Shown here: piece after piece, positions 12,503 through 52,941 of the stretch | Position numbering within the stretch: the stretch's first letter is position 1 | How the letters are laid out: each line of letters begins with the position of its first letter | Assembly: GCA_964016885.1 (NCBI GenBank) | Contig: OZ024760.1 | Span: 3,038,001 to 3,102,000 of the forward strand | Reading direction: 5' to 3' | From: Eledone cirrhosa | Taxonomy: Eukaryota | DNA length: 64,000 nt | The notes under the pieces: generated by a model | The model's database searches: none | Seen by the model: only the letters and a program-made list of their open reading frames with translations | What the model was told of the DNA's origin: nothing | Program-made: the position numbers and the translations under genes

Positions 12503-12668
12503 AACTCCAATTCTGCTGCTAATATCCCTCCATAATTTTAGCCCTGATGACTTAAATCTTGTAAAAATGCCTGCTCTTGAGAAACTTCAGCGTTGTGGTG
12601 CTCATTCATCTACTATGCGGCCAGTTTATCCATATAAAAGTCAACCTAATCTGTACAGTATTGTCACA
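12503..12668 (+). CDS. ENPP: ENPP exon 6 (PDE catalytic region): RTPILLLISLHNFSPDDLNLVKMPALEKLQRCGAHSSTMRPVYPYKSQPNLYSIVT
   Basis: ttttcAG acceptor, ACA|GTAAGT donor; aligns to the canonical LLxSLDGF...CG....MRPVYPTKTFPNHYSIVT. Confidence 0.95.
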
Positions 12669-12828
12669 GTAAGTAACCCTTAACACCACAACTACTTTTG
12701 CCTCTAATTCTCCCACAGATTCAGCTATGAGGACTAGGTCATCAGCATACAGGGATTCCCATGGAGTGCCAGTTTAACCTCTTCAGTGCTACGGAGGAGG
12801 TAACTTGTCCTAACATGTTTGAATTCTT

Positions 12829-13066
12829 TTCCAACAGTTCATAACTTCAAAGTCATGAACTCGTTTCCAACAGTTCATAGCTTCAGAGTTATCAACTCGT
12901 TTCCAGCAGTTCATAACTTCAAAGTTATGAACTCGTTTCCAACAATCATAACTTCAAAGTCATGAACTCGTTTCCAGCAGTTCATATCTTCAAAGTTATG
13001 AACTCGTTTCCAACAATCATAACTTCAAAGTTATGAACTTCTTTCCAACAGTTCATAACTTCAAAG
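12829..13066. repeat. 36-bp minisatellite with an internal hairpin, ~6.5 copies
   Basis: Unit TTCCAACAGTTCATAACTTCAAAGTTATGAACTCGT; AGTTCATAACTT/AAGTTATGAACT is self-complementary. Confidence 0.9.
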
Positions 13067-14414
13067 CTAGATGGGGTTACTAGTTTATTGATGTGATGTT
13101 TGTCAATTATTCAAATATGTGTTGTTAATAAATGGCTGTTTAAAAAAATAGTCATTTAACTGAAAAAAAACTCGGCTCAGCAACTGTAGCTGTGTAAAAT
13201 ATATACAGCAGTCAACAGATTAATTTCATTGGAAATCATTACTAAGATATTAACTTTACATTTATTCTTAACCATCTCATCGCTGTATTTCTAATGATAC
13301 ACACTGTTTCAATTAATCAATGAAGAATTTGGGGGGGATTTACTAAAATTATTATTTCATTACTAACTTAACAATTGGTTATTAACCCTTACATGACCAC
13401 CTTTCTAATGGCATTCTCCCTATTTCAATACACTATTGAAGAATTTTGAGAGATTTATTAAAATTGTTTATTGGAAAGGAAGATAAACAAATACCGTGGA
13501 CTGTCCAGCCACTTCTTCTTTGTAGCGGTCGCCATCAAGACCTCAGGCATACTAAAACCCCACACTGTCAAGCTCCTCTACAAGATCAGACCGTCGACAG
13601 CCCATCTGAGGAAGGAGCCCCTTTGTTAAGTTATGTTCCAAAAATCAGCTTAATAATGAGAAAGTTTGGAGTAGTTTAGTAATCTAAACTGCTCCAAGCT
13701 TTATACGGTTTCCATTAGAAATATGGTATCGAAAAGGGTTAGTCTAGACATAAACGAATCTCAGAGGATTCTACATTTCTTAGTCATGGTGGATTATGAC
13801 ACTTCTTGAAAACGTATTTCATACAGCTCAACACTTTAGCATTTAAACCAGCCATATCTGGCCAGAATTCTCTCACCTCTTTCTGTTCAAACTGGCCGTA
13901 ACCAGTCACTCATACTGACGTTAAGGTGTTGTTCTCAAAATAAATAATATCAAAATCTTGTAGATTCGATATTATGTGAGATAATTTTGTGAGGTAAAGC
14001 CAAGAAAATACAATAGTATATATAGAGTTATGTAATTGTTAAAAGGTTAATGTATATCCACATGTATATACATGCCCACACATATTTTCATGTGCAAAAC
14101 AGTAGTTTAGTTTGTCATATTGGCTACGAGAATTGTATCTATTTGTTTACATATCATGTCATATCACATTGAAATATCCAACATATTAGTGAATATTCAT
14201 AAATGTATAGAATATTAATATCTTTGGCAAATTAAAAAACACACATTCTTTTACTAGAGTTCTATTGATTAGTTTGTGAGACACCAATACATGATGAAAC
14301 ACTGCTACGTGATAGTTTCCATGTATTGCTGGTGTTAGTATTCATGTTTGTGTGGTTGTGTGTATTAAAACTAAGTTACCAGTAGAGGTAGCAACAGTTT
14401 TTAGTACATGGTAT

Positions 14415-15560
14415 ACAGTGGTAGTGCTGATGCCAAAATATAATACACCCAGTATACTCTGTAAAGTGGTGGTGCTGATGCCATAATAAAATATACCCAG
14501 TACACTCTATAAGGTGGTAATACTGGTGTCACAATGAAATGTACCCAGTACACTCTGTAAAGTGGTAGTGCTGATGCCACAATAACATACACCCAGTACA
14601 CTCTGTAAAGTGGTAGTGCTGATGCCACAATAACATACACCCAGTACACTCTGTAAAGTGGTAGTGCTGATGCCACAATAACATACACCCAGTACACTCT
14701 GTAAAGTGGTGGTGCTGATGCCACAATAACATACACCCAGTACACTCTGTAAAGTGGTGGTGCTGATGCCACAATAACATACACTCAGTACACTCTGTAA
14801 AGTGGTAGTGCTGATGCCACAATAACATACACCCAGTACACTCTGTAAAGTGGAAGTGCTGATGCCACAATAACATACACCCAGTACACTCTGTAAAGTG
14901 GTAGTGCTGATGTCACAATAACATACACCCAGTACACTCTGTAAAGTGGTAGTGCTGATGCCACAATAACATACACTCAGTACACTCTGTAAAGTGGTAG
15001 TGCTGATGCCACAATAACATACACCCAGTACACTCTGTAAAGTGGTGGTGCTGATGCCACAATAACATACACCCAGTACACTCTGTAAAGTGGTGGTGCT
15101 GATGCCACAATAACATACACCCAGTACACTCTGTAAAGTGGTAGTGCTGATACCACAATAACATACACCCAGTACACTCTGTAAAGTGGTGGTGCTGATG
15201 CCACAATAACATACACCCAGTACACTCTGTAAAGTGGTAGTGCTGATGCCACAATAACATATACCCAGTACACTCTGTAAAGTGGTAGTGCTGATGCCAC
15301 AATAACATACACCCAGTACACTCTGTAAAGTGGTAGTGCTGATACCACAATAACATACACCCAGTACACTCTGTAAAGTGGTGGTGCTGATGCCACAATA
15401 ACATACACCCAGTACACTCTGTAAAGTGGTAGTGCTGATGCCACAATAACATACACCCAGTACACTCTGTAAAGTGGTAGTGCTGATACCACAATAACAT
15501 ACACTCAGTACACTCTGTAAAGTGGTGGTGCTGATGCCACAACAAAATATACCCAGCATA
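14415..15560. repeat. 48-bp minisatellite, ~24 copies
   Basis: Unit ACCCAGTACACTCTGTAAAGTGGTAGTGCTGATGCCACAATAACATAC. Confidence 0.95.
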
Positions 15561-18762: not shown

Positions 18763-18873
18763 GGTTTGTATCCAGAATCACATGGCATTATTGATGAGGA
18801 AATGTATGATCCAGTGGAAAACAAATCTTTTAAAGCCACAACCAATGAATCTTTCTGGTGGGGAGGAGACCCA
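18763..18873 (+). CDS. ENPP: ENPP exon 7 (PDE): [37 protein letters not shown]
   Basis: tttcAG acceptor, CCA|GTTAGT donor; [10 protein letters not shown] motif. Confidence 0.95.
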
Positions 18874-18917: not shown

Positions 18918-20650
18918 GAGGGCAGTGGATTGGGAGTATCGGTAGAGAGTCGGACACCATGCTTTGAAACACAGAGTTACGTCCCTTTACGATCTGAGTT
19001 CAAATCCCGCCGAGATTAACTTTACCTTTCATCCTTACGGTGTCGATAAAATAAAGTACCAGTAATACACTGGGTAATTGCTGGGCTTGTGCCAAAAGTA
19101 GAAACAATTATTATTATCCTCAGTGGATAATAATAATAAAGGGCGGTGGACTGGCAGTATCGGTAGAGGGTTGGATCGGACGCCATGCTTTGAAGCATAG
19201 AGTTACGGCCCTTGCCATTCTGAGTTCAAATGCCGCTGAGGTTAACTTTACCTTTCATCCTTACGGGGTCGATAAAATAAAGTACAGTAATACACTGGGT
19301 AATTGCTGGCCTTGTGCCAAAAGTAGAAACAATAATTGTTATTATCCGTTGCCTTTGCTCCCAAGTTTCAACCAGAAACAAATAAAGCAGTTAGGATATA
19401 TACTGGAATATATGCTGAGGAATATGTGACCAAATAATTGATGGTAGAATGGGAAAGGGATCAGCTTATATACGTCATCTAAACATTATCTTGATTAGCT
19501 CCCTTGGCTTATAAACAGGGTTTGGATTTTAGCCCATTTCTCAGATATAAAACTGACTTTTATCAGATCGGCTTATCTTTGAGTATATATAGTATTTATC
19601 TGATGCTCTACCGATTCTGCTGATTCGCCACCACCAAATTAATATTAGAAACAATATTTTTTTGATATTTGAATTTTTTATTTATTCTTTTTTTTTTATT
19701 AGATATGGGATGTCGCTGAAAAGCAAAACAAAACGTCATCAGTTTACTTTTGGCCAGGATTCAGTAAGTATTTTAAATATTTTATTATGCCATAATAACG
19801 AGGTGAAGGCATGCAGCCTAGTGGTAAGTGCACAGAGTAGAAATTATTATTGGATTGGCAGTATCGGTAGAGAGTCGGACTCCATGCTTTCCAACATAGA
19901 GTTAGTTACGTCCCTTTACGATCTGAGTTCAAATCCCGCCGAGGTTAACTTTGCTTTTCATCCTTACGGGATGGGGGGGGGCGGTCGATAAAATAAAGTA
20001 CCAGTAATACACTGGGATAATTGCTGGCCTTGTGCCAAAAGTAGAAACAATTATTATTGGTGATGTCTTGGCAGAATCATTTGAACATCAGACAAAACTG
20101 TTTATAGTCTTTGTTTCAGCCATTTATGCTTGGAGTCTAAATCCTGCTGGGGTTAGCGTTGCCTTTCATCTTTATGGGAGTTGGGGAGGTCGATAAAATA
20201 AAGTACCAGTAATGCACTGGGATCGATTTAATTGACTTTCCCCTCCCTCAAAATTGCTGGCCTTGTGCCTAACTCAGAAACTATTATTATTAATTGTTTC
20301 TTTCATCCTTACGGGATCAATAAAATAAAGTACCAGTAATGCACTGGGTAATTGCTGGCCTTGTGCCTAAAGTAGAAACAATTATTAATTGTTTCTATTA
20401 TTATTAATATTATGCAAGGTTAACTTTGCCTTTCATCCTTACGGGGTCGATAAAATAAAGTACCAGTAATGCACTGGGTAATTGCTGGCCTTGTGCCTAA
20501 AGTAGAAACAATTATTAATTGTTTCTATTATTATTAATATTATACAAGGTTAACTTTGCCTTTCATCCTTACGGGGTCGATAAAATAAAGTACCAGTAAT
20601 GCACTGGGATAATTGCTGGCCTTGTGCCTAAAGTAGAAACAATTATTAAT
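18918..20650 (+). mobile_element. Cluster of tRNA-derived SINEs (family C, Nin/Deu-like central domain) on both sides of exon 8
   Basis: A-box TGGCAGTATCGG, B-box GAGTTCAAATCC, GCCTTTCATCCTTACGGGGTCGATAAAAT core, TTGCTGGCCTTGTGCC..AAGTAGAAAC(AATT) tail; full copies at about 18918, 19141, 19850, 20066 and tandem 3' halves at 20300-20650. Confidence 0.85.
19703..19763 (+). CDS. ENPP: ENPP exon 8 (PDE): IWDVAEKQNKTSSVYFWPGF
   Basis: T-tract plus AG acceptor, A|GTAAGT donor; IW..A..Q......FWPG motif. Confidence 0.92.
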
Positions 20651-20852: not shown

Positions 20853-20854
20853 TT

Positions 20855-22475: not shown

Positions 22476-22509
22476 AAGATAAGAAGACAGGAAACAGGAT
22501 TTATGAAAG
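22476..22509 (+). CDS. ENPP: ENPP exon 9 (34-nt small exon): KDKKTGNRIYE
   Basis: ttccAG acceptor, AG|GTAAGC donor; supplies the phase 1-to-2 shift needed between exons 8 and 10; little sequence similarity on its own. Confidence 0.7.
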
Positions 22510-25851: not shown

Positions 25852-28800
25852 TATTATTATTATTATTATTGTTATTGTTATTCCTTGAATCTCAGTCATT
25901 GATGTTGGTTAACTGGAAAGTCCGTTGGATTGAATATCAAGCCACTACCTGCAGCCTCAGATATTCAGGACGTATCGGAGGGTTCTTGCCGTTCCAAGCA
26001 AGCATGCCTTTTGAAGCGTTCCAAAAAGCGTGAAGGGGCCGATTTTCTTTAACCATCCCTGGAAACCTTTGGAGATAGTCCCCAGTGCGCCTATGACAAT
26101 CGGGATCACTTTGACTTCATGGCAGTTCCAAATCCTTTTCACCTCCCACTTTAGGTCCTGGTATCGGTTAATTTTCTCCCTCTCCTTCTCTTGCACTCTC
26201 GTGTCGAACGGGCAGGCCACATCCACAATCAGGCACGATCTTTTTTCTTTGTCCACAACCACCAGGTCAGGTCTATTGTGTTCCAGTTTTTTGTCCGTCT
26301 GTATCCTAAAATCCCACAGCACCTTCACCTGACTGTTCTCCATCACCGCCTCTGGCCTATGCTCATACCATTTCTCAGAGTGTGGTAGATTGTTTACTTT
26401 GCACAGGTGCCAGTGGATCACCCTGCCCATCACATCGTGTCTCCAGCCCTTATAGTGGGTCTGGGCTAGGTGTTTACACTCGGACACAATGTGAGCCACA
26501 GTCTCCTCTCTCTCTCCACAGATCCTGCACAGTGGGCTAGCCTCCTCCTTGTAGATATGGTGCTTCAACCACTTCGTTTTGAGGGCCTGCTCCTGCGCAG
26601 CCATTAGCATTCCTTCTGTAGCCTTTTTGAGGTCTCCTCTTCTCAACCAGTTCCATGTCTGTGGATCTCTAAATTCAGTTTTCTCAAAGAAGGTACTATG
26701 AAGGGATTTTCCCTTAAGGCTGCTCTTCCTCCTTGATGTTATTTCCTCCTTGGGTATCCCCTGGCCTACTGTCCCCTCCTTCAGTACAGCTCTGAGCATT
26801 GGCTCCTTACTATAGGTCACGTATTTGTATAGGTTGTTTTTCTCCATCTGAACACAGTCCTCTATGCTGATAAGACCTCTTCCACCCTCAGATCTCCTTA
26901 GGTAGAGTCTATCGACATCACTCCTCTTGTGGAACATGTTGTAGATAGTCAATAGCTTCCTAGTCTTCCTATCCATTTCTTTTTGTTCAGCAACATTCCA
27001 TCTCAGAATTCCCGCACTGTACCTAATAATAGACACAGCTCGGGAATTTACTGCGCTTATGGCATTTCTGCTGTTCAGATGTGACTTCAATACGCTCCTT
27101 ACTCTCCGAATGTATTCAGTTCTTAACAATTCCTTCATTTTTTTGTTCTTTATGCCATCAGCCTCCAGAACGCCCAAATACTTGTATCCTTCCTCAGAGT
27201 CAATTTCCTTTATCATCTCACCTGTTGGTATCTGGATCCCGTTACTTCTGCTCAACCTACCCCTCCTCATCACAATGACTCCACATTTACCAATACCAAA
27301 CTGCATACATATATCACTGCTGAAAATACGGACAGTGTCAACAAGCACATCCAACTCCTTCTCACTTTTCCCGAAGAGCTTAAGATCGTCCATGAAGAGG
27401 AGGTGATTGATGGTAAGCTCTCCCCTTCCCAACTTGTATCCTGCTCTCACTTTTCGCAGCATAATGGTCAAGGGCATCAGGGCAAGGACAAACAACAGAG
27501 GGGACAGGCTATCTCCCTGGAAGATACCTCTCTTGATCTTCACGCTTCCCAAGGATACTCCAGTTGATGTCAACTCTGTCTCCCAGGACCCCATACTCCT
27601 GCCCAGCAACTGTCTGATGTTATCTGCCACCCTGAAGATCTCCAGGCTTTTGGTGATCCAGGAATGAGGCACCATGTCAAATGCCTTTCTGTAGTCTATC
27701 CATCCCATGGCAAGATCAGTGTGTCTCCTCCTGCAATTCCCCATTACCATCTTATCAATAAGCAACTGGTCCTTTGTACCACGTGACTTCTTTCGGCATC
27801 CTTTCTGTTCGTCCGGCAACAAGTTGTTTGTGTGGAGGTGATGGTAGATTTCCTCAGACACAATGCTCGTCAACAGTTTCCACATTACGGGCAGACATGT
27901 GATAGGTCTATAGTTGGTAACATCATTACCCTTGATTCGGTCTTTCATTATCAGAACTGTGGTACCTTTTGTCAACCACTCTGGCACCTCACCCGACACC
28001 AAGCAGTCATTGAACATGGCCGTCAGCTTCGGGTGGAGGGATGTTAAATGTTTAATCCAATACCCCTGCACACCATCTGGGCCTGGTGATTTCCAGTTGG
28101 TTAGCTTTTTGGCTTGCCCCTTAAGAGTTTCAACTGTGATACTCAAATAAGTCTGTTGCTGTGCCTGCTCACCGATCTCCCTCTGTACTGTCTCAATCCA
28201 CCCTGCCTGGGCATTGTGTCTAACATCCTCATCCCATATTCCTCTCCAGAATGTTTTAGCTTGTTCCCCCCCAGGGATCAAGTCGGTGCCTCTTTCTTTC
28301 CCCTCAAGCTGTCCAAACAGCATCTTCTGGTTGTTGTCGAACATGCGGTTCTGTTTATACTGACTGACTCTGTTCTCGTATCGCCTGATTTTGGCACTCT
28401 TTGCTACAATGCGTTGCTTCAATTCCTCTATGATAATATTTAGCTTTTTACTCCTAGTTTTGTATTTTATTTCCAGTCTATTTTTAGTGCCTATGTTTTT
28501 TAGTGTCCCATTCAGTAGTGACTCAAGCTTTCCTATGTCATTTCTCATTTCCCCGATTTGCCCACTCAGTCGCTTCTTCCACCACGGCTCTGCTCTTTCT
28601 TGTCTGTTGTTTCCTCTCGCTTTTATACCAAGTAGTTTCCTCACCGTATTTGCTGTTGCTTTGAGGATATTGTTGCACTGGTGAAGACTCCTCGCCTCAA
28701 GGTATGGGATGACTTTGTTTACCTTAGCTGTTGTTTCTTTTAACTTTTTCCTGTCTACAAATCTTAGGTTCATAGGTCTCCCACTATCATTGTTCAACTC

Positions 28801-30447: not shown

Positions 30448-30494
30448 TTAAAAAGTAATGTTTTACCCAGTATACTTCAACATGATATTTCAGG

Positions 30495-31357: not shown

Positions 31358-31472
31358 TCCTGTTGATTACATTAAAGGAATAAACATGATTCTAAGTGAC
31401 CTCAGCCTTCCTCCAGAAGATCGGCCAAATTTTATCGCAGCCTATTTGAAGACCCCTGACATCAAGCTACAT
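31358..31472 (+). CDS. ENPP: ENPP exon 10 (PDE): SPVDYIKGINMILSDLSLPPEDRPNFIAAYLKTPDIKLH
   Basis: tttacAG acceptor, CAT|GTGAGT donor; 'LxLP..DRPxF...Y...PDxxxH' motif. Confidence 0.9.
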
Positions 31473-32092: not shown

Positions 32093-32201
32093 ATTGAAGA
32101 CCAGCTAAACCTGATTGATAACGCAGTTGACCAATTGATGAATGGCATCAAAGAGCGCCATCTACAGAACTGTATCAACTTAGTTATTGTATCTGATCAT
32201 G
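32093..32201 (+). CDS. ENPP: ENPP exon 11 (PDE): IEDQLNLIDNAVDQLMNGIKERHLQNCINLVIVSDHG
   Basis: atAG acceptor, G|GTAAGT donor; LMxGxK...C.N....SDHG motif. Confidence 0.95.
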
Positions 32202-33405: not shown

Positions 33406-33503
<98 letters not shown>

Positions 33504-36480: not shown

Positions 36481-36517
36481 TTGGCTTTATTTTCATATTT
36501 ATCAAAAATCTTTTCAT
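34523..36517 (-). CDS. Penelope-like RT + GIY-YIG endonuclease (Cys-rich linker, Neptune-like)
   Basis: LYGLRKDHK, RPVCGA, SMDVVSLY, GAAIG..IA..VANLFM, YVDD, LPVLD; linker CTNRKCIIC; NVVYSIRC...YIGETAR....R...H, REA, LN. First ~12 codons come from an adjacent tandem repeat. Confidence 0.9.
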   Translation of the reverse strand: MKRFLINMKIKPSRRTANNFQVSNNGIPPLYGLRKDHKTVDDPTTGPPTRPVCGANIASNYRISYFLSMVIRPIIKMSPDVCESTEDLLSRISECNKNRSLSNCIIGSMDVVSLYSSINIDFAVKRCVEMIIESEVEFCDVDTDKLGLLLRLTYDTDYLDSHDLRCFCPSRPIRGRPPTITSMAKKTPIGRWIGWTKAIRTPQNTDQVRKMVAHAIGASIKTTLKGHIFKFNEKIYTQNEGAAIGVSIAGDVANLFMVWWERRLKDLLNESSIDLIMYSCYVDDINIVIRTPPLESTNKFDLERSTMESIQQIANSIHQSITVTIDFPSKHPNNRLPVLDTELWINTIDERAQILHSHYAKPMASKYLILKNSAMSSSAKFNILIADLVRVMKNVSSMCDPTEMEGHIQHFINRMQFSGYNQRDRVRVYEGAMEKYKTLIELDMKGICPLYRSKSWNSLDRARHKIGKATSWYDNQRYQSVMFVDATPGGKLANQCRKALRKTHLKIKVVEKPGTTIKSLISKTYPFKKTHCTNRKCIICKVNPRINCKTRNVVYSIRCTEGTCRNMTTTYIGETARSIGERIDQHWGELKGRKNGSVLYEHARQQHDGNIDNIEIRIISKHRNDPADRQIREASEIEIRRPKLNRKNEWNNNTETNNTDLREV

Positions 36518-36577
36518 ATTATCTAAAATCTTTTCATATTTATCTAAAATCTTTTCATATTTATCTAAAATCTTTCC
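36490..36577. repeat. ~21-bp tandem repeat x4 (TTTTCATATTTATCTAAAATC) at the Penelope 5' truncation
   Basis: Visible directly. Confidence 0.85.
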
Positions 36578-37848
36578 ATCATAAATGTAACAACTGTTTC
36601 TACTTTTGGCACAAGGTCAGCAATTATCCCAGTGTATTACTGGTACTTTATTTTATCGACCCCGTAAGGATGAAAGGCAAAGTTAACCTCGGCAGTATTT
36701 GAACTCAGAATGGCAAGGGCCGTAACTCTATGCGCCAAAGCATGGCATCCGACACTCTACCAATACTGCCAATCCACCGCCTATATATATATAATGTGTG
36801 AAGGCGCATGGCTGAGCAATAAGAGAATTGGGACTCGCAATCGTGAGTTTGTGAGTTTGATTCCCCGATCGCGCGATGCATTATGTCTTTGAGCAAGATG
36901 CTTTATTTCATGCTAGATAGTATTTCATGGTAGATAGTATTAGCATTTGGAAACATTGTTTCCTTGGTCCAGTTTGAGGAGGTCTAGGATCTTGTCGATA
37001 TATGTATATATAATATATATATATATAAACAGAAAATTGTGAAGGATAATCAAAACACACTAACCAACATGAAATATTCCTTACATTATGTTTCATCTAG
37101 ATCAAAAAATCCAAATTGTGTCTACAGAATAGAATTGAATTTGATCTGAAATCACCAATAGATGCATCTCGATCTAGAATCGTCAGAGGAAATTACAAAA
37201 GTTTATAATGATATCAAAAAAGGATAAAGATGAACTTTACCTTTTGCAACCTAACAAAAAAGCTTTGCTTTTGAATAAGGCATCTAATATAATATATCAT
37301 ACTATCCTCTCCTGCAAATTTATGCTATAATACTTCTTTTTTTGATATATATATGTATATATATAACCTGTCACAACACAAACACTAAATGTACGAAGAT
37401 ATCTCATTAATTCGTCCAACCTGCAGGAGATTGAGATCTGAAGAGCACATTTTAACATTTGTGACCTGTTCACTTTCATCTATTCTTTTTCCTTCAAGTC
37501 AACTCACATCTAGTCACTGATCTCTGTCCTTCGAGGTAATATTTTCCCCAACACTGTTCTAACAGCTTCCATACACCGAGTTTTCCCAATTTCCTGAGAA
37601 TTCTAATACACTCGCATCTCAAAACTCTATTTTTTTAGTTAATTTGAATATATATATATATATATATATTCAAATTAACTAAAAAATATATATATATATA
37701 ACAAAGGAAATGTGGTAAGGAACCACATGGACCATAACACACCAAAGTACTCAATACTTAGGGTAGTAGAGTGGGTAATAGGAACGAGTAGCACCCCGAC
37801 GGTTGAGCTCAAGCCGTTTCGACGGCTATTTCTGCACTAAAAAAAAAA

Positions 37849-37880
<32 letters not shown>

Positions 37881-38498
37881 AGTCCAGAAATAGCCGTCGA
37901 AACGGCTTGAGCTCAGCCGTCGGGGTGCTACTCGTTCGTTCCTATATATATAAATATATATATATAAATATATATATATAAATATATAAATATATAAATA
38001 TATATATATAAATATATAAATATATAAATATATATATATATATATTGGAAAATGTGTGAGATCCTTGGTACGGTTAGGTATATTTGAAAAATAGGAAAAG
38101 AATGACTTCACTTGTAGTGTTAAAAAATTTATGATTTAATGTTATAATATAATATTATAATATTATGAGTTGGTAGATCCGGTAAGTTCTTTGTTAACTT
38201 GGGTTGGAGAACTTTCTCGCATTCGTCTGTCTGTGGTGATTATCAAACCGAGATCAGGTTGTGTTGTGATGTGTGACTATATATAAGAGAGAGATTTGGA
38301 TGTCTCTGGGGTGTGGCGTGCGGTGTTAATGAGTGTTGATGATGATGAAGGTCCGGAGGAATTAAAGTATACATACACACACACACATATATATATATAC
38401 ACTGATAAAATGGTGAGGTTGTAAGATAAGGGTGTTTGAGAAGGTGGTCGTAAACCTACTCTCCTGCTGGTTTTATTTCATTAGCTGACCTTTGATGA

Positions 38499-38534
<36 letters not shown>

Positions 38535-38934
38535 CGGATCTAGCTGTTGAAACAGCCAGAGCTCAGCTGTCGGGTTGCTGACTTATTTCCTATATATCAT
38601 CATCATCATCATTTCATTTTTCGTCCGCTTTTCCCTGCTTGCAAGGGTGGGACGGGAACTGATTCTGGCTTGATTTCTACAGCTGGATGCCCTTCCTAAC
38701 ACCAACCTCATTTACAGTGAGTGCTGGGTGCTTTTTTGCCGTGGCACCTCCACAACCACTTTACAGTGGAATGATAGGGACCCGAGTCCCTATCATCTCA
38801 TTTCTACAGCTGAGTAAACTGGAGCAATGTGAAATAAAGTGTCTTGCTCAAGGAAACAACACATCACCCGGTCTGAGAATTGAACTCACAACCTTTCGAT
38901 TGCAAGGCCAATGCTCTAACCACTAAGCCATGTG

Positions 38935-40678
<1,744 letters not shown>

Positions 40679-40982
40679 ATATATATATTAAAATAACAGA
40701 TTAAAGTTTAAGCAAAGAATCACTGCTTTCACCCCTAACGGGATCTTTTAAAAAGCGGGATATTTTAATAAATATTTGCTCTAGGGTTCTTATATATTTG
40801 ATATATATTTATCCTTATCGAGCCCTCTTTGCATTTTTGTCTTCATATTTATTATTATTACTATATATATATGTGTATATATATAAATGTAAGTATGCAC
40901 AGCTGATACGTATGCATACTTACATTTATATATATACACATATATATATAGTAATAATAATAATATATATATATGTATGTAA

Positions 40983-41056
<74 letters not shown>

Positions 41057-41158
41057 CTATCTAGGGCGGGTAAAATCCCCGAGATCCATGCTGCCATGTC
41101 CTACGTCTCCAACGTGTATGTGTATATATATATATATACATATATATACATATATATG

Positions 41159-41194
<36 letters not shown>

Positions 41195-41202
41195 CATATA
41201 TA

Positions 41203-42170
41203 TCATCATCATCACCGTTTTACGTCCGTTCTTCCACGCTAGCATGGGTTAGACGGGTTGTCCTGTTGTGGGCAGTGTCTGGTCGGCTAACCATGCCTTG
41301 CTCATACAGGAACTGATCTGGCTTGATTTCTACAGCTGGATGCCCTTCCTAACACCAACCTCATTTACAGTGAGTGCTGGGTGCTTTTTCGTGGCGCCTA
41401 CACGTCCACTTTACAGTGTGGGCTGGGTGCTTTTTTGCCGTGGCACCTCCACGACCACCTTGCGGTGGGGGGGGGGGACATATTGTTTATATGCTTCAGC
41501 ATGTACCCATGGGAGGTCGGGTACCCTGTATTACTGCGTGACGCCAGAAGTCACGGTCGTGTGTCATTGACTTTGAGAGGTGTAGTTGGGTAAGGTCGGC
41601 TTTTATCACCTCATCCCAAGTCATCTTGGGTCTCCCCACTCCGCGGTTTCCATCAACTTCTAGTGCTCTGCACCTTTTTATGCAGCTGTCATCCTTCATA
41701 CGCATCACATGTCCATACCAGCGTAACCGCCTCTCCTGCACGCAGCATTTGATTCCTCTTATGCTCAGTCTCTCTCTCAATTCATTTATGCTTTGTCGTT
41801 CACGTATATTACTGTTACACATCCATCGGAGCATGCAGGCTTCGTTTCTCTCTAATCTACATAAGTCTTCCACCTTTAGCGCCCAGGTCTCACTACCATG
41901 CAACATCGCTGTTCGGATACACGCATCATACAGTCTGCCTTTCATTCTGAGGGAGAAGCCTTTTGCAGCTAGCAGTGGTAGTAGTTCCCTAAACTTCTTC
42001 CATCCCGTTCTTACCCTAGTTATTGTACTTTCTGAGCACCCACCTCCGTTGCTAATTCGGTCACCTAGGTAGCAGAAGCTGTCTACTGTTTCTACAGAGC
42101 CCTCCCAGAGATTGGTGGTACTTGTTTCCTGTGGCTGTTTGCTTGCTGTTTCAGCACAGCTGCTGCATGC
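41203..42170 (-). mobile_element. RTE LINE family B, 5'-truncated
   Basis: SFCYLGDRI...MLHGSETW...[11 protein letters not shown]...; 3' UTR distinct from family A; matches 55115-56155. Confidence 0.88.
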
Positions 42171-42201
42171 ATATATATGCATATATATACATATATATAT
42201 G

Positions 42202-42244
<43 letters not shown>

Positions 42245-42298
42245 GTATATATATGTATATATATATATGTATATATATATGTATATATATGTATATAT

Positions 42299-42344
<46 letters not shown>

Positions 42345-42362
42345 GTATATATATGTATATAT

Positions 42363-42414
<52 letters not shown>

Positions 42415-42435
42415 GTATATATATGTATATATATA

Positions 42436-44415
42436 TGTCGGAAGTGGAAGATCTCCAGGTATGGATGGCATACATGCTGAGCTCCTACAATATGGTGGTG
42501 AGAGACTCCTGCAACATCTTCACTCTCTGTTTGGAGGGATATGGGCTAATGAATCCGTGCCTGAGGACTGGAGAGATGCAGTAATGGTGGTCTTGTACAA
42601 GGGAAAGGGTAACAGGAATGATTGTGGGAACTACAGAGGTATATCATTGCTTTCTGTCGTGGGGAAAGTTTTATGTAGGGTGCTTCTGGACCGTCTGCTG
42701 ACACACATTGCAGATTGTGTCCTTCCTGAAAGTCAATCTGGTTTTCGTGTTGGACGCGGCACTACTGATATGATCTTCTCAGCTAGACAGCTCCAGGAGA
42801 AGTGCATTGAACAGGGCTTGGATCTGTATCAGGTTTTTGTCGATCTGACAAAGGCTTTCGATACTGTCAACAGAGATGCATTATGGAAGGTTCTCCAGAA
42901 ACTTGGTTGCCCTGATAAGTTCCTTGCTTTAGTTAGGTCTTTCCATGACGACATGAAGGCTTGGGTTAATGTCGGAGGTAATATGTCGGAGCCTATCTCA
43001 GTAAAAAATGGAGTGAAACAGGGGGATATTCCAGCACCGACACTGTTTGCCATATACTTTGCAATGGTTTTCTGTATTGCATTCAGGAATTGCGAGCATG
43101 GTGTTTACATCCGATATCGAACCTCAGGCAGCATATTTAACATCAGGCGCTTTGCTGCGAAGACAAAGGTATTTACATCGGTCATAAGAGACCTCTTGTA
43201 TGCAGATGATTGCGATCTTGTAGCGCACACAGAGAGTGATATGCAGCACATTTTGAATGTATTTTCTGACGCTTGCACTGCCCTGGGTTTGACTGTCAGT
43301 CTCAAGAAAACCGTCGTCATGTACCAACCTGCACCTGGTAGGCAGTACACTGAACCAAACATCTATGTGTATGGCAGACGACTTGGAGTGGTTGATCAGT
43401 TTGTCTACCTGGGAAGCACTGTCAATCGATACGGCAACCTTGGCAGTGAAATCTCACTTAGGATTAGGAAAGCAAGTGATGCTTTCGGAAAGCTAGAAAG
43501 GCGACTCTGGGGTCGGCGAGACATATGCAGGAGGACAAAGGTAAGGGTGTACAGGGCATGTGTACTCTCTTGTCTTCTTTATGCCTGCGAGACCTGGGTC
43601 ACATATCGACGCCACCTTAAGCAATTGGAGCGTTTCCATCAGATGTGTCTCAGACGGATACATGGCGTTCGCTGGAGGGACCACATCAGTGATGTCGAGA
43701 TTTTGGAAAGCTCTATGTGTGACAGTATAGAAGCTCTTGTGCTTAAGCAGCGACTCCGTTGGAGTGGTCACCTTGCCAGGATGAAGGATTCTAGAATACC
43801 AAAACAACTCTTCTATGGAGAGTTGGTTAAAGGAAAACGACCGCCACATAAACCAAAAAAGAGGTATAAGGATTCCTTGAAAGCCTCTCTGAAAGACGCT
43901 AACATCTCTGCTGATACATGGGAAAATATTGCTGCTGATCGTAATAAATGGAGAAAGACTGTATATGAGGGAAAAGTTGCCTTTGAGGCATCTCGAATCG
44001 CACACGAGAAAGTAAAGCGGGACGTGAGGAAGGGTATTGCTGTTGCACTTCCAGACGGCGAGGGTCCTCCTGTGTTTCTGACATGCAGCGTCTGTGCGAG
44101 ACTCTGCCTAAGCAAAGCTGGACTCGAAAGTCATCTTCGCAGTCATAAAGTAAGACCAGTGGTTGACTACCAGGCTGCTGTTGGAGATGCTACTCATCAT
44201 GCTTGCCAAACATGTGGTAGAGAATGTAAATCAGCAGGAGGACTCAAGCGACATGCAAAAGTACACGAACTCCAACCACAGCCGACTATTCCCAGTAAAT
44301 GTTTTGGTTGCCGACTCTATGCAAGACATTTTAGATCATTGGCTGGGCTAAAAAGCCACATTCGATCGCAGCACTGTTAGTTGCTATCGTGTGTTTGTGT
44401 GTGTGTGTGTGTGTA
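42436..44415 (+). mobile_element. 5'-truncated RTE (BovB-like) LINE, intact RT, three C-terminal C2H2 zinc fingers, (GT)n tail
   Basis: [70 protein letters not shown]; CxxC..H...H fingers. True ORF begins about 42437; the N-terminal YI repeat in the ORF track is microsatellite. Confidence 0.9.
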
Positions 44416-44499
44416 GATATGCTTATGTGCGTGCGTGTGTGTGTATATATATATGAATATGTATATTATTATTGTTGTTGTCGTTATTATTATTATTGC

Positions 44500-44551
<52 letters not shown>

Positions 44552-44673
44552 GTTATTAATGTATGTGTGTATATATGTGTGAGTGTATGTGTATGTATGT
44601 GTGTGTGTATATATGTATGTATATGTATGTATGTGTATGTGTATATATATGTGTATGTATATATGTATGTATA

Positions 44674-44706
<33 letters not shown>

Positions 44707-44744
44707 CTTTTCCCTTTTTTTTTTTTTTTTTTTTTTTTTTATTT

Positions 44745-47700
44745 ATTTATTATTATTATTATTATTATTGTTATTGTTATTCCTTGAATCTCAGTCATTG
44801 ATGTTGGTTAACTGGAAAGTCCGTTGGATTGAATATCAAGCCACTACCTGCAGCCTCAGATATTCAGGACGTATCGGAGGGTTCTTGCCGTTCCAAGCAA
44901 GCATGCCTTTTGAAGCGTTCCAAAAAGCGTGAAGGGGCCGATTTTCTTTAACCATCCCTGGAAACCTTTGGAGATAGTCCCCAGTGCGCCTATGACAATC
45001 GGGATCACTTTGACTTCATGGCAGTTCCAAATCCTTTTCACCTCCCACTTTAGGTCCTGGTATCGGTTAATTTTCTCCCTCTCCTTCTCTTGCACTCTCG
45101 TGTCGAACGGGCAGGCCACATCCACAATCAGGCACGATCTTTTTTCTTTGTCCACAACCACCAGGTCAGGTCTATTGTGTTCCAGTTTTTTGTCCGTCTG
45201 TATCCTAAAATCCCACAGCACCTTCACCTGACTGTTCTCCATCACCGCCTCTGGCCTATGCTCATACCATTTCTCAGAATGTGGTAGATTGTTTACTTTG
45301 CACAGGTGCCAGTGGATCACCCTGCCCATCACATCGTGTCTCCAGCCCTTATAGTGGGTCTGGGCTAGGTGTTTACACTCGGACACAATGTGAGCCACAG
45401 TCTCCTCTCTCTCTCCACAGATCCTGCACAGTGGGCTAGCCTCCTCCTTGTAGATATGGTGCTTCAACCACTTCGTTTTGAGGGCCTGCTCCTGCGCAGC
45501 CATTAGCATTCCTTCTGTAGCCTTTTTGAGGTCTCCTCTTCTCAACCAGTTCCATGTCTGTGGATCTCTAAATTCAGTTTTCTCAAAGAAGGTACTATGA
45601 AGGGATTTTCCCTTAAGGCTGCTCTTCCTCCTTGATGTTATTTCCTCCTTGGGTATCCCCTGGCCTACTCTCCCCTCCTTCAGTACAGCTCTGAGCATTG
45701 GCTCCTTACTATAGGTCACGTATTTGTATAGGTTGTTTTTCTCCATCTGAACACAGTCCTCTATGCTGATAAGACCTCTTCCACCCTCAGATCTCCTTAG
45801 GTAGAGTCTATCGACATCACTCCTCTTGTGGAACATGTTGTAGATAGTCAATAGCTTCCTAGTCTTCCTATCCATTTCTTTTTGTTCAGCAACATTCCAT
45901 CTCAGAATTCCCGCACTGTACCTAATAATAGACACAGCTCGGGAATTTACTGCGCTTATGGCATTTCTGCTGTTCAGATGTGACTTCAATACGCTCCTTA
46001 CTCTCCGAATGTATTCAGTTCTTAACAATTCCTTCATTTTTTTGTTCTTTATGCCATCAGCCTCCAGAACGCCCAAATACTTGTATCCTTCCTCAGAGTC
46101 AATTTCCTTTATCATCTCACCTGTTGGTATCTGGATCCCGTTACTTCTGCTCAACCTACCCCTCCTCATCACAATGACTCCACATTTACCAATACCAAAC
46201 TGCATACATATATCACTGCTGAAAATACGGACAGTGTCAACAAGCACATCCAACTCCTTCTCACTTTTCCCGAAGAGCTTAAGATCGTCCATGAAGAGGA
46301 GGTGATTGATGGTAAGCTCTCCCCTTCCCAACTTGTATCCTGCTCTCACTTTTCGCAGCATAATGGTCAAGGGCATCAGGGCAAGGACAAACAACAGAGG
46401 GGACAGGCTATCTCCCTGGAAGATACCTCTCTTGATCTTCACGCTTCCCAAGGATACTCCAGTTGATGTCAACTCTGTCTCCCAGGACCCCATACTCCTG
46501 CCCAGCAACTCTCTGATGTTATCTGCCACCCTGAAGATCTCCAGGCTTTTGGTGATCCAGGAATGAGGCACCATGTCAAATGCCTTTCTGTAGTCTATCC
46601 ATCCCATGGCAAGATCAGTGTGTCTCCTCCTGCAATTCCCCATTACCATCTTATCAATAAGCAACTGGTCCTTTGTACCACGTGACTTCTTTCGGCATCC
46701 TTTCTGTTCGTCCGGCAACAAGTTGTTTGTGTGGAGGTGATGGTAGATTTCCTCAGACACAATGCTCGTCAACAGTTTCCACATTACGGGCAGACATGTG
46801 ATAGGTCTATAGTTGGTAACATCATTACCCTTGATTCGGTCTTTCATTATCAGAACTGTGGTACCTTTTGTCAACCACTCTGGCACCTCACCCGACACCA
46901 AGCAGTCATTGAACATGGCCGTCAGCTTCGGGTGGAGGGATGTTAAATGTTTAATCCAATACCCCTGCACACCATCTGGGCCTGGTGATTTCCAGTTGGT
47001 TAGTTTTTTGGCTTGCCCCTTAAGAGTTTCAACTGTGATACTCAAATCAGTCTGTTGCTGTGCCTGCTCACCGATCTCCCTCTGTACTGTCTCAATCCAC
47101 CCTGCCTGGGCATTGTGTCTAACATCCTGCTCCCATATTCCTCTCCAGAATGTTTTAGCTTGTTCCGCCCCAGGGATCAAGTCGGTGCCTCTTTCTTTCC
47201 CCTCAAGCTGTCCAAACAGCATCTTCTGGTTGTTGTCGAACATGCGGTTCTGTTTATACTGACTGACTCTGTTCTCGTATCGCCTGATTTTGGCACTCTT
47301 TGCTACAATGCGTTGCTTCAATTCCTCTATGATAATATTTAGCTTTTTACTCCTAGTTTTGTATTTTATTTCCAGTCTATTTTTAGTGCCTATGTTTTTT
47401 AGTGTCCCATTCAGTAGTGACTCAAGCTTTCCTATGTCATTTCTCATTTCCCCGATTTGCCCACTCAGTCGCTTCTTCCACCACGGCTCTGCTCTTTCTT
47501 GTCTGTTGTTTCCTCTCGCTTTTATACCAAGTAGTTTCCTCACCGTATTTGCTGTTGCTTTGAGGATATTGTTGCACTGGTGAAGACTCCTCGCCTCAAG
47601 GTATGGGATGACTTTGTTTACCTTAGCTGTTGTTTCTTTTAACTTTTTCCTGTCTACAAATCTTAGGTTCATAGGTCTCCCACTATCATTGTTCAACTCA

Positions 47701-49288
47701 TCTACCACTAAATTTAGGATGTCAACCGAATCTTGTCCTAGCCCGTCAGCATTCATCTCCTCAGTGGCCGTATCTCTGTTCCAGGTATTATTTATCTCAG
47801 TATTCAGATCATTGTCTGCTTCGGGTGGTTCCTCCGCTCTCAGGACCTCCTCACCTTCATTTCCCGCCGGCTCGCTTGTCTGGCATACTACACCCGCCAT
47901 CTCCAAGCCATTCTCTCTGCTCAGTTCCTCCAGTTCCAGCTCGCTTATCCACCCATTAGTTCTTATTACCCGAGCCTGCCCGGCCAATTTTTGTTCATCT
48001 AATTTAAATAAACCAATCTCGTTCCAGATGTTATGCATCCGTCTCCTGTAGCCCCTCTCCTTGGGGTTACTTTTCAGGTAGCATTGCATAACAGTTCTAT
48101 TCAATTCTTTCGTCCAGTTGGTTCTGGCCCCTTTCCTTCTTCTTCTTCCTCCAACATCAGCAGTATTTCGTTGACAGTCAGGTTCCTGCTGCTGAGCCAG
48201 GGGGCACCTGTTGGGTGAGAGTCTGTCACATGACGTTCTAGTCTCCATTTCACCGTTATTCGAACTGTTTATGTTCGATATTTAAACACTCTTATCGAGG
48301 ATTGGCGAATGTATGTTTACATAGCCATCTGTGGATCCGCCATCCCACTTGGCCCTTGTGTGGCATTATCACCACGCTGTATACGGACACACATAAACAA
48401 ACAAACACACGGGCAGAAAGGGCCCCAAAAATGAATAAGCATAAGTTTCATTGTAATGTAGTATTCGAATGTCTGACTTAGTTTTTGTTTTTTAAGTTTT
48501 ACTTTTTCCCCCCTCTTCTCTGTCCGTCCGCCTGCCTCTCTCTTCATTCTTATTTTCTTTACGTTTTGGGGGTTTCTTTTTTTGTTTTTGTTTTTCTCTG
48601 TTTTTCTCGTTTTTTACTGTTGTTGCTGTGCTGCTTTTGTTGTTTATTTTTTCTTTTTTCTTTTGAGTCTATCTATATATTTTGATGCCTTCCTCTTTTT
48701 TAGCAGTAGGGATTCTATAATGTGGTGGCAGCAGCCAGCTAAAAGAAGAAGTGGGAGACTGGCGGCGGTAGCGATACTGAGACAGTGGTGGTGGTGATGT
48801 CGATACCGAGACAGTGGTGGCGGTGATGTGACCGTATTACTGTAGCGATGGTGCTGTAGCGGTGGCAGCAGTGAAGGAGTGAAGGGGTGGTGGCGGCGGT
48901 GATGGGATAATGGTTGTAATGATGGCCGTAGTGATCGGTGGTGGTTTAGTGTACACAGGTGATAGGGTGGGTGGTGTATCTAGTTTCTGGTGTTGGTGAG
49001 TTTGGCTGTTCTATATAGTGTATACAGAGGAGGAGGGGGGGGGGTTCTTCTTCCATTTATAGCCATTTTCTTTTTTGGATATACAGTGTACAATACAAAG
49101 TTGAATATTTGAATATTTGAGCCTTATAACAATATATTTTGGGTCCGAATTTTTTGGGGCTCAAGCCGGGTGCTTTACGTAGCATTTGTACTAAGAGTTG
49201 TTATTTCACAAATGGTTTAAATATGTTAAAAATTCAAAACTTACGGGAGCGATTTCATGACCTCCGTCACCTCGTGCGTCTTCTTCCC

Positions 49289-49337
<49 letters not shown>
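44745..49337 (-). mobile_element. Full-length R4/Dong-like non-LTR retrotransposon, copy 2, flanked by (TTA)n and poly-T
   Basis: Same structure as copy 1 with different flanking DNA. Confidence 0.92.
44856..48248 (-). CDS. R4/Dong-like ORF (RT + RLE), copy 2
   Basis: 1130 aa, intact; differs from copy 1 at six residues by my comparison (G/A, D/E, E/Q, Y/D, Q/E, T/R). Confidence 0.95.
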   Translation of the reverse strand: METRTSCDRLSPNRCPLAQQQEPDCQRNTADVGGRRRRKGARTNWTKELNRTVMQCYLKSNPKERGYRRRMHNIWNEIGLFKLDEQKLAGQARVIRTNGWISELELEELSRENGLEMAGVVCQTSEPAGNEGEEVLRAEEPPEADNDLNTEINNTWNRDTATEEMNADGLGQDSVDILNLVVDELNNDSGRPMNLRFVDRKKLKETTAKVNKVIPYLEARSLHQCNNILKATANTVRKLLGIKARGNNRQERAEPWWKKRLSGQIGEMRNDIGKLESLLNGTLKNIGTKNRLEIKYKTRSKKLNIIIEELKQRIVAKSAKIRRYENRVSQYKQNRMFDNNQKMLFGQLEGKERGTDLIPGAEQAKTFWRGIWEQDVRHNAQAGWIETVQREIGEQAQQQTDLSITVETLKGQAKKLTNWKSPGPDGVQGYWIKHLTSLHPKLTAMFNDCLVSGEVPEWLTKGTTVLIMKDRIKGNDVTNYRPITCLPVMWKLLTSIVSEEIYHHLHTNNLLPDEQKGCRKKSRGTKDQLLIDKMVMGNCRRRHTDLAMGWIDYRKAFDMVPHSWITKSLEIFRVADNIRELLGRSMGSWETELTSTGVSLGSVKIKRGIFQGDSLSPLLFVLALMPLTIMLRKVRAGYKLGRGELTINHLLFMDDLKLFGKSEKELDVLVDTVRIFSSDICMQFGIGKCGVIVMRRGRLSRSNGIQIPTGEMIKEIDSEEGYKYLGVLEADGIKNKKMKELLRTEYIRRVRSVLKSHLNSRNAISAVNSRAVSIIRYSAGILRWNVAEQKEMDRKTRKLLTIYNMFHKRSDVDRLYLRRSEGGRGLISIEDCVQMEKNNLYKYVTYSKEPMLRAVLKEGRVGQGIPKEEITSRRKSSLKGKSLHSTFFEKTEFRDPQTWNWLRRGDLKKATEGMLMAAQEQALKTKWLKHHIYKEEASPLCRICGEREETVAHIVSECKHLAQTHYKGWRHDVMGRVIHWHLCKVNNLPHSEKWYEHRPEAVMENSQVKVLWDFRIQTDKKLEHNRPDLVVVDKEKRSCLIVDVACPFDTRVQEKEREKINRYQDLKWEVKRIWNCHEVKVIPIVIGALGTISKGFQGWLKKIGPFTLFGTLQKACLLGTARTLRYVLNI

Positions 49338-50097
49338 TTTTTTTTTTTTTTTTTTTTTTTTTATTGTGCAATGGCCATACTCGATAACGAGGGGGCAGCC
49401 ATCATATGTATATATATATGTATATATATATGTATATATATATGTATATATATATGTATATATATATGTATACATATATATGTATATATATATGTATATA
49501 TGTATGTATATATATATACATATATATATATATAACCAAAGATTAATATGGTTCATTGAATATAGTTTTACAATAGATTAAAAGCACTCTACAAAAAAGT
49601 TTTCTGGAGTTATTATTATTCAGAATAATAAAAAATGAAGACATTCACATAATCAAAATATATGTTTTATTATATACATTTCGAAGGTACTGTGCTGTTT
49701 CAACATCATCATCATCATCATCATCATCATTTTTACGTCTGCATTTCCCTGCTTGCAAGGGTGGGACGGGAACTGATTCTGGCTTGATTTCTACAGCTGG
49801 ATGCCCTTCCTAACACCAACCTCATTTACAGTGAGTGCTGGGTGATTTTTTGCAGTGGAATGATGGGGACCCCAGTCCCTATCATCTCATTTCTACAGCT
49901 GAGTAAACTGGAGCAATGTGAAATAAAGTGTCTTGCTCAAGGAAACAACACATCACCCGGTCTGAGAATTGAACTCACAACCTTTCGATTGCAAGGCCAA
50001 TGCTCTAACCACTAAGCCATGTGCCTCCATGTGCCTCCATGTTTATATATTATATATAGCAATTATTCTTCTTTGTATCTCTCCTCTTTCTATTCAG

Positions 50098-50247
50098 GTA
50101 CAAAAGTGAACTCTTGTGGGAGACTTGTTGATTTGTCTGACGTTGTGAATATAACATCTCTGGTGTTTGATGGTGAAGCCACACGGATTGATACACGGTT
50201 TAAAGATGTCGGCCAGGATATTGTACCACAATCAGAAGGTGTGCAAA
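50098..50247 (+). CDS. ENPP: ENPP exon 12 (PDE): GTKVNSCGRLVDLSDVVNITSLVFDGEATRIDTRFKDVGQDIVPQSEGVQ
   Basis: Strong pyrimidine tract plus ttcAG, A|GTAAGT donor; phase 1-1 fits neighbours; corresponds to 'GM....C.....L'. Confidence 0.85.
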
Positions 50248-51532: not shown

Positions 51533-51689
51533 AGAAAGAATACCTTGATATCTCAACGAAGATCAACTGTGCCAATAGACATATTTCCATATTTAATCCA
51601 AGAACTCTTCCACACCGATTCCACTATACACACAACCAACGTCTTGGAGATCTCGTTCTTGTTGCCGATGATGGTTGGATGGTTGCTAA
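51533..51689 (+). CDS. ENPP: ENPP exon 13 (PDE): KKEYLDISTKINCANRHISIFNPRTLPHRFHYTHNQRLGDLVLVADDGWMVA
   Basis: ttttcAG acceptor, AA|GTAAGT donor; LPxRxHY..NxR.......D.GW motif. Confidence 0.93.
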
Positions 51690-51901
51690 GTAAGTCTGGT
51701 GATTTTTCTTTCATAATTTTGATTTATTTTTTAATTTATTTTTTATTTTATTTATTTGTTTGTTAACCCTTTAGTATTTAAACCAGCCATATCTGACCAG
51801 AATTTTCTTACTTCTTTCTGTTCAAACCGGCTGTAAGTGGCTGCTCATATTGTATGCGATAATTATTTGAGGTAAAGCCTATACCACAAAAATGCAATAG
51901 T

Positions 51902-52192
51902 ATCATCATCATCATCGTTTAACGTCCATGTTCCACGCTTGCATGGGTTTGGACAGGAGTTTTCCCACTTGAGGCAAGAGTGGTTGTCTTGCTCGCATAG
52001 GACTGTCTGGCGGGTTTTCTACAGCTGGATGCCCTTCCTAACACCAACCGCATTTACAGTGTGGGACTGGGAGGTTTTTACCGTGTTGCCTACACGGCCA
52101 CATTACAGCGTGGACTGTGTGTTTTTTTGTCGTGACACCTACACGATCTCATTTGTTTCGGCCTGGATGTTGTGGCACCAACATAACTTTAC
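51902..52192 (-). mobile_element. RTE family A 3' UTR inserted in a piggyBac-type MITE
   Basis: Matches the family A 3' UTR; MITE sequence continues on both sides. Confidence 0.82.
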
Positions 52193-52886
52193 ATATATAT
52201 AGAGTAATGTGTTAAACTGCCCATGTCCAGCCAGAATTCTTTCACCTCTTTCTATTCAAACAGGCTGTAACTGGGCGCTCATACTTATGTTAATGTATTA
52301 TTCTCAACATATATAATATCAAAATCTTGTAGATTCGATATTATGTAAGATAAATCCTTTACCACAAAATTACAATAGTATATATAGAATAATGTAAATG
52401 CTAAAGGGTTAATGGTTTTGTCCTGCCAGCCCAGGTATTGGGTATTTTAGTCCTAACAATGTTTGACCATATCTCACTATCTTACTACAGTGGAATTCCC
52501 AGGTATTCTTCTTCTTCTGCTACTGCTGGTGTTGTTGTTGTTGTTGTTGTTGTTAATGGTGGTGGTGCTTTCTTGGAGATGGTTGCTCATACAGAACTGA
52601 TTTGGGCCTGGTTTCTACAGCTGGATGCCTTTCCTAATGTCAACCACTTTACAGTGTGGACTGGGTGCTTTTTGTTGTGACACCTACACGACCACTTTAC
52701 AGTATGATCTGGATGCTTTTTGTTGTGTTGGCATCATGATATATATATATATTTCTCTACCACGCCTGTGTCTCCCTGACACCATTATATTATACCTCTA
52801 TGTAGGAAGTTGTGGAGGAAGGTAACAGAGGGAATAAATTAATTTACATAGTAACTTTTCTTAATTATCTTTTATTTTTGCAATAG

Positions 52887-52941
52887 GTCATCCGACACTA
52901 AGTGCAGAAAAGTCAATTTTGATCTCGACAACAGTAAACAG
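52887..52941 (+). CDS. ENPP: ENPP exon 14 (PDE): KSSDTKCRKVNFDLDNSKQ
   Basis: aatAG acceptor, CAG|GTAAGG donor; phase 2-0 fits; C-x7-DN spacing matches canonical C.xGxHGxDN but without the His. Confidence 0.8.

Follow-up and report, generated by a model that had tools for sequence, protein, structure and literature searches.

A degenerate phosphodiesterase module, probably catalytically dead and kept folded, in a tandem ENPP of the octopod Eledone cirrhosa

Introduction

The closest described systems to the gene analysed here are ENPP1 and ENPP3 (PF01663, PF01223). The gene crosses a 64,000-nucleotide stretch of the E. cirrhosa genome (GenBank assembly GCA_964016885.1, contig OZ024760.1, positions 3,038,001 to 3,102,000, forward strand; hereafter the window), which encodes one phosphodiesterase (PDE) domain, PDE2, preceded by exons of a nuclease-like (NUC) domain. 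ENPP1 and ENPP3 resemble this locus in fold (template-modelling score, TM, 0.86), in sequence (36% identity), in structural cysteines, a glycan site and PDE-NUC pairing and, as seen in relatives of the octopod gene, in an N-terminal anchor. They differ in having one PDE-NUC unit rather than three; the Octopus sinensis protein P0272 gave no somatomedin-B match, and in PDE2 four of the eight catalytic residues are replaced and two loops are shortened.

Closer still are the molluscan multi-module ENPPs (O. sinensis XP_029649912.1, O. bimaculoides XP_014771948.1 and Mizuhopecten OWF35917.1), which belong to the same family and of which the window holds module 2. These proteins are already public as uncharacterised or 'venom phosphodiesterase-like', and tandem enzymes that contain a pseudo-enzyme domain are already familiar. 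Dead copies beside live ones are common in tandem enzymes. Carboxypeptidase D domain III, the D2 domain of receptor protein tyrosine phosphatases and the N-terminal half of hexokinase I are all kept folded beside a live copy, although they belong to other families and have tested regulatory roles. A further analogy is the lactase-phlorizin hydrolase profragment, in which tandem homologous domains form a membrane ectoenzyme and the N-terminal part acts as an intramolecular chaperone, according to the text excerpts of PMC6412902. That enzyme differs in its unrelated fold and its C-terminal anchor, and its profragment is cleaved off. The open-licence literature that we searched, without supplements, held no account of three- or four-module mollusc ENPPs or of pseudo-ENPP modules, and the excerpts of three papers on related subjects made no tie to this gene (PMC4460706, a snail ENPP5; PMC7148315, ENPP increased in mussel plasma after poly I:C; PMC12607849, venom-PDE-like transcripts of octopus gland).

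Here we report that the catalytic residues of PDE2 have been replaced and its fold kept. We consider it likely (probability roughly 0.7) that PDE2 is dead and forms part of a glycosylated stalk, kept folded, on which a likely active third module stands clear of the membrane.

Results

Identity of the module

The window protein aligned with residues 577-1186 of O. sinensis P0272 at 73% identity, and its PDE alone matched at 289/375 positions (77%). In two quick trees PDE2 and Octopus module 2 formed a clade (support 100), whose sister was module 2 of the cuttlefish protein P0289 (99). The trees used 71 (near-duplicates and partial models left out) and 38 of 126 module rows, with Argonauta in the first only. 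P0289 is called cuttlefish because its cluster contains a named Sepia pharaonis protein; many members of this cluster sit on 6.7-7.1 kb contigs that resemble transcripts, the sole sign of expression and one that comes from a relative. A search with window exon 1 returned one relative among four candidates, a partial Argonauta hians protein. The relatives form a family of long mollusc proteins that carry three or, in some cases, four copies of the PDE-NUC unit in tandem. The cephalopod layout, known from relatives only, consists of an N-terminal membrane anchor, a degenerate PDE1-NUC1, a degenerate PDE2-NUC2 and a canonical PDE3-NUC3, and the five proteins scanned each had a single hydrophobic segment, near the N-terminus. 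These sequence comparisons identify the window PDE as the second of the three modules in an octopod (PDE-NUC)x3 membrane ENPP. The first-pass annotation of the window had proposed the upstream PDE module as a control; the window contains only its NUC, module 1 is degenerate in relatives and the canonical copy is module 3, downstream.

Proteins of Haliotis, Mya and Littorina (P0273, P0274 and P0275) have four modules, all canonical. Across molluscs, annelids, a priapulid and nematodes, the number of modules lay between 2 and 4.

Catalytic residues of PDE2

Residues are numbered as in human ENPP1, and the numbers of the 925-residue ENPP1 used for alignment (P0013, named Pan paniscus; 36% identity over 420 aligned columns, E 3e-75) agree with those of the first-pass annotation. 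All six motifs that it listed lie on the plus strand where it had placed them, and the substitutions D218H, T256S, F257Q, N277E and H535F were confirmed, as was the absence of the loop after PDxxxH, which comprises eight residues (381-388). The module is also three residues short after position 535. The Thr nucleophile and the phosphate-binding Asn are both replaced, and both zinc ligand sets are incomplete. In the Zn2 set (D218, D423, H424), D423 and H424 are present and position 218 is His in all four octopods; in the Zn1 set (D376, H380, H535), position 535 is Phe in the window and Tyr in Octopus, and positions 376 and 380 vary. K373, D376 and H380 are present in the window. The first-pass annotation had described D376, H380, D423 and H424 as kept; this holds for the window, but 376 is Asn in both Octopus species and 380 is Asn in Argonauta.

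Mutagenesis of mouse ENPP1 indicates how such positions matter. In the excerpts of PMC9173814, replacing any of five of the six zinc ligands by Ala, those matching 218 and 535 among them, gave protein inactive on ATP and cyclic GMP-AMP (cGAMP); H362A (human H380) was the sole zinc-ligand mutant that retained ATPase activity, and mutation of N259 (human N277) inhibited activity on both substrates. The excerpted text on NPP structures describes the two zincs and that Asn as absolutely conserved (PMC6052110). Three of these positions, along with the nucleophile, are altered in the window.

Residues with structural roles are retained in the window (C241, C415, C431, C480, C530 and N585). In ENPP3, according to the excerpts of PMC6052110, the residues that correspond to C480 and N585 hold the interface between PDE and NUC, the correspondence being our own assignment. 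As expected of an ENPP1-3-type protein, both residues are kept and NUC2 follows in P0272, at a place that lies beyond the window.

A canonical site might be restored by correction of an assembly error, by hidden alternative exons or by adenosine-to-inosine (A-to-I) editing. The codons are CAT for H218, AGT for S256, CAA for Q257, GAG for E277, GAC for D376, CAT for H380, GAT for D423, CAT for H424 and TTT for F535, and by the genetic code no A-to-G change of CAT, AGT, GAG or TTT can yield D, T, N or H. Neither tblastn (18 queries) nor a motif scan of all six frames turned up an alternative exon with canonical residues in the window; the sole new credible tblastn matches were two NUC1 exons, and the others had E values of 0.01 or worse, several being on the minus strand or containing stops. 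Contigs assembled from raw reads matched exon 1, with no differences over 12472-12744 in three runs of one sample, which may be the assembly's own and so is not independent. The read search yielded no usable RNA of this species, since the three good matches cross the intron and thus behave as DNA. Coleoids recode many transcripts, which counts for repair at the RNA level, but the same substitutions occur in three other species, and with the codons and the exon search this makes an artefact or RNA-level restoration extremely unlikely; alternative exons had been raised as a refutation in the first-pass annotation. A micro-exon restoring the 8-residue loop was considered and rejected, the loop being absent in all four octopod proteins.

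Fold of the module

The AlphaFold2 model of O. sinensis module 2 had a mean predicted local distance difference test (pLDDT) of 89.7, and its TM score to ENPP3, as to ENPP1, was 0.86. The comparison with ENPP1, of the kind suggested earlier, found the fold retained. The 376-380 stretch is a coil in the module 2 model and a helix in a canonical control protein that was modelled with the same set of relatives. The block of the 535 loop had a pLDDT of 67 in the module 2 model versus 97 in the control. Descent and predicted fold together indicate that the window module is a member of the ENPP/NPP family, with an alkaline-phosphatase-like fold.

Selection on the fold

Identity between the window and O. 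sinensis was 79/86 at family-conserved columns and 97/141 at variable columns (P 6e-6). When neutral change was simulated at a matching overall identity, the mean was 67.7/86 (P 0.0005; a further simulation P value was 0.0025), and the frame stayed open in 2.8% of runs. In the window, the splices join in an open frame across all 11 PDE exons and 47,983 bases of PDE introns, as the first-pass annotation had noted. Divergence of module 2 proceeded at about the rate of canonical module 3, as judged from sequence: identity to cuttlefish was 154/345 for PDE2 and 186/384 for PDE3, branch lengths were 0.65/0.58 and 0.69/0.52, and two cuttlefish sequences differed at 28/357 and 22/383 positions, respectively. 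These protein-level tests indicate that the PDE2 fold is under purifying selection, in agreement with what had been argued from the intact frame.

Neutral decay, in which a redundant copy within an essential gene drifts and selection guards nothing but the open frame, is consistent with the loss of 13-15 of the 53-86 scored non-catalytic conserved residues in octopod module 2 (71/86 are kept in the window), against none in three scallop modules. Canonical module 3 of Octopus has lost equally many (73/89 and 76/88 kept), and the avoidance of family-conserved columns and the branch lengths that match module 3 also count against decay, which we regard as very unlikely. PDE2 has the features of a pseudo-enzyme domain, with catalytic residues lost and a fold under selection.

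Distribution of degenerate modules

All eight catalytic residues were present in 95 of the 126 module rows. The 27 non-cephalopod mollusc proteins contributed 82 modules, of which 71 were canonical, eight were canonical where covered and three were degenerate (Mactra module 3, Dreissena module 2 and Patella module 1). Bivalve, gastropod and chiton modules are therefore nearly all unchanged at covered sites (79/82), in contrast to the three full-length cephalopod proteins, in which only module 3 is. Of 11 cephalopod modules, the three module 3 copies were canonical and the eight copies of modules 1 and 2 degenerate; in each full-length protein (3/3) module 1 was degenerate and module 3 canonical. 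Every multi-module mollusc protein with a degenerate module retained a canonical one (6/6), a count to which the window and the Argonauta fragment do not contribute, as each shows one module only. D423 was present in 123/123 covered rows and H424 in 122/123, in dead and live modules alike, so their presence is no evidence of catalysis. H260L was rejected as a marker of dead modules, as a frog row named autotaxin carries it too.

Degenerate zinc ligands were also observed in crustacean single-PDE proteins (P0158, P0299, P0108, P0296 and P0298), for example M376/A380/N535 in Macrobrachium and G218/N256/V376/Q380/F535 in Armadillidium; judged by these residues, such proteins are possibly stand-alone pseudo-ENPPs.

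Variation among octopods and cuttlefish

Position 376 is D/D/N/N, 380 is H/N/H/H and 257 is Q/L/L/L (listed as window, Argonauta, O. bimaculoides, O. sinensis), and K373 is replaced by Pro in Argonauta. The first-pass annotation had asked whether H, S, E and F are conserved in orthologues: H218, S256 and E277 are identical in all four octopods, and position 535 is Phe or Tyr. As context, 118/190 columns and 11/20 derived positions are likewise fixed in octopods. Cuttlefish module 2 (P0289) has S218, N256 and K277, retains the Zn1 ligands and has G340 and H371. A second cuttlefish sequence (P0308) has K256 and S259, so that the nucleophile position is Asn in one and Lys in the other of two close sequences. 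Because the module is broken at different residues in cuttlefish and octopods, the sister lineages share no alternative active site.

Alkaline phosphatase has a Ser nucleophile, and its superfamily includes members with one metal. PDE2 could by analogy be an active hydrolase confined to octopods, with one metal, Ser as the nucleophile and His in place of Asp, as the first-pass annotation had suggested. The fixed H/S/E set of the four octopods would fit this idea, as would two Acanthaster modules (P0297) that carry S256 but are canonical at the seven remaining catalytic sites; by sequence, these are the better candidates for Ser-nucleophile NPPs. An alkaline-phosphatase-like Ser hydrolase has a Ser nucleophile, both zinc sites and a phosphate-binding Arg. 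PDE2 has the Ser, but its Zn1 site is incomplete and none of the positions examined holds a conserved basic residue. The Zn1 ligands vary between species and the model lacks their helix, position 535 is Phe or Tyr, F257 is Gln or Leu, an acid occupies the phosphate-binding position with no conserved Lys or Arg substitute (K373 being Pro in Argonauta), and the sister module in cuttlefish is broken elsewhere and lacks the nucleophile. S256 is moreover shared with the clearly degenerate Octopus module 1, where it stands amid G218, V376, E380 and S535. We consider new chemistry quite unlikely. The dead scaffold or binding module that had been offered beside it is supported.

Within that class, PDE2 could be dead and still bind a ligand or regulate, with one zinc on H218/D423/H424 (S256 or E277 as a cap) and an aromatic slot that would bind a nucleotide, a lipid or a partner and so tune module 3. 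W322 and Y340 of the slot are retained in all four octopods and Y371 in three, and H218/S256/E277 are fixed together with neighbouring derived residues. Of seven independent changes at 277, five were to an acidic residue, where the expectation for each is 0.18 (P about 0.003, for a position chosen post hoc). Against binding, the nucleotide slot has lost one of its walls, F257, to Gln or Leu, K373 is Pro in Argonauta, and the cuttlefish module, with G340 and H371, has a different residue set. We judge a ligand-binding or regulatory role unlikely.

Coleoid module 1 (P0269/P0272/P0289), Mactra module 3 (P0287) and Patella module 1 (P0009) share G218, D277 (Asn in O. sinensis) and S535. A single origin of these modules was rejected in the 38-row tree (approximately unbiased test, p-AU 0.013), which makes the pattern convergent at least in part. 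Together with the acidic changes at 277, it gives a hint that the pockets of dead ENPP modules settle on preferred states, which keeps ligand binding alive as an explanation. A more speculative proposal, which we hold to be improbable, is that octopods rebuilt module 2 as a single-zinc site (His218, Asp423, His424, Ser256 and a Glu277 cap) that would sense or bind an extracellular ligand or cut a non-nucleotide substrate, giving a sensor-plus-enzyme, and that G218/D277/S535 would separately be a second pseudo-ENPP binding class reached three times.

Discussion

The reading that we favour is that PDE2 is a dead, folded part of a stalk. Zn1 would be unable to bind, because H535 is now Phe or Tyr, positions 376 and 380 are variable and the helix that carries them is absent from the model. 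D218H would remove the carboxylate ligand of the zinc that activates the nucleophile, and the acid in place of the phosphate-binding N277 would repel substrate; H218/D423/H424 may still hold a single zinc with a structural role. As the anchor is N-terminal, modules 1 and 2 would lie between the membrane and the sole canonical module, likely as a rigid glycosylated stalk, and their folding would likely be needed for export of the chain. The fold may be selected because one misfolded module in the chain would keep the entire protein from being exported, and because the length or the surface of a stalk is useful.

Several points weigh against this reading. Loss of activity and of metal binding is judged from residues and a predicted model, and the stalk role only from how the modules are laid out. 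The structure predicted is that of the O. sinensis orthologue, which has N376 and Y535, and it is metal-free. The cited mutagenesis introduced Ala rather than His, Ser, Glu or Phe. Ser256 by itself need not kill an enzyme, because the Acanthaster S256 modules are otherwise canonical, and the octopods agree in H218, S256 and E277. Module 3 lies beyond the window and is known from relatives rather than from E. cirrhosa.

The losses form a natural experiment. Coleoids lost modules 1 and 2, and separate single losses occurred in Mactra, Dreissena and Patella, with recurring substitutions, which makes non-catalytic roles of the ENPP fold testable. 'Venom phosphodiesterase' labels on fragments of this gene should be read with caution, as they may name inactive modules.

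Gene structure in the window

The 16-exon model (five upstream NUC exons and 11 PDE exons; Table 1) encodes 606 residues with no stops, and the PDE part runs on the plus strand in an open spliced frame over 12503-61680. All 11 PDE2 exons are bounded by AG and GT, as in GT-AG introns. Pfam PF01663 was matched in three of the four window exons scanned. The 34-base exon was detected solely through a splice-site scan against the Argonauta peptide. The range of 12503-52941 given in the first-pass annotation covers nine of the 11 PDE exons; exons 10 and 11 lie beyond it.

Table 1. Exons of the ENPP gene in the window (positions counted from the first nucleotide of the window)
Feature	Positions	Strand	Residues and remarks
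NUC1 exon	1281..1398	+	nuclease-like domain of module 1
NUC1 exon	5496..5564	+	
NUC1 exon	7500..7614	+	EF-hand-like motif
NUC1 exon	9365..9500	+	
NUC1 end and linker	10911..11095	+	Cys-containing linker into PDE2
PDE2 exon 1	12503..12668	+	H218 (12531), S256 (12639), Q257 (12642)
PDE2 exon 2	18763..18873	+	E277 (18796)
PDE2 exon 3	19703..19763	+	W322 retained
PDE2 exon 4	22476..22509	+	34 bases; Y340 retained
PDE2 exon 5	31358..31472	+	K373, D376 (31458), H380 (31470); exon end is the site of the absent 8-residue loop
PDE2 exon 6	32093..32201	+	D423 (32195), H424 (32198)
PDE2 exon 7	50098..50247	+	C431 retained; absent from O. bimaculoides model, found in O. sinensis
PDE2 exon 8	51533..51689	+	C480 (PDE-NUC disulfide cysteine) retained
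PDE2 exon 9	52887..52941	+	F535 (52918), 3-residue deletion
PDE2 exon 10	59631..59718	+	
PDE2 exon 11	61532..61680	+	N585 glycan site retained; linker toward NUC2

The newer annotation of O. bimaculoides splits the gene in two (P0268 and P0125) near the place that corresponds to window 32202-50097, and the older one lacks the 150-base exon found at window 50098. Both discrepancies are likely annotation errors at a long intron.

Two introns contain copies of a 4.6 kb element (25852-30450 and 44751-49326) that are 97.9% identical, probably a recent long interspersed nuclear element (LINE). A 1.2 kb repeat is present in two copies, at 39491-40666 and 60337-61511, and intronic tandem repeats occupy 14403-15556 (unit of about 48 bases) and 62639-63773 (unit of about 40 bases).

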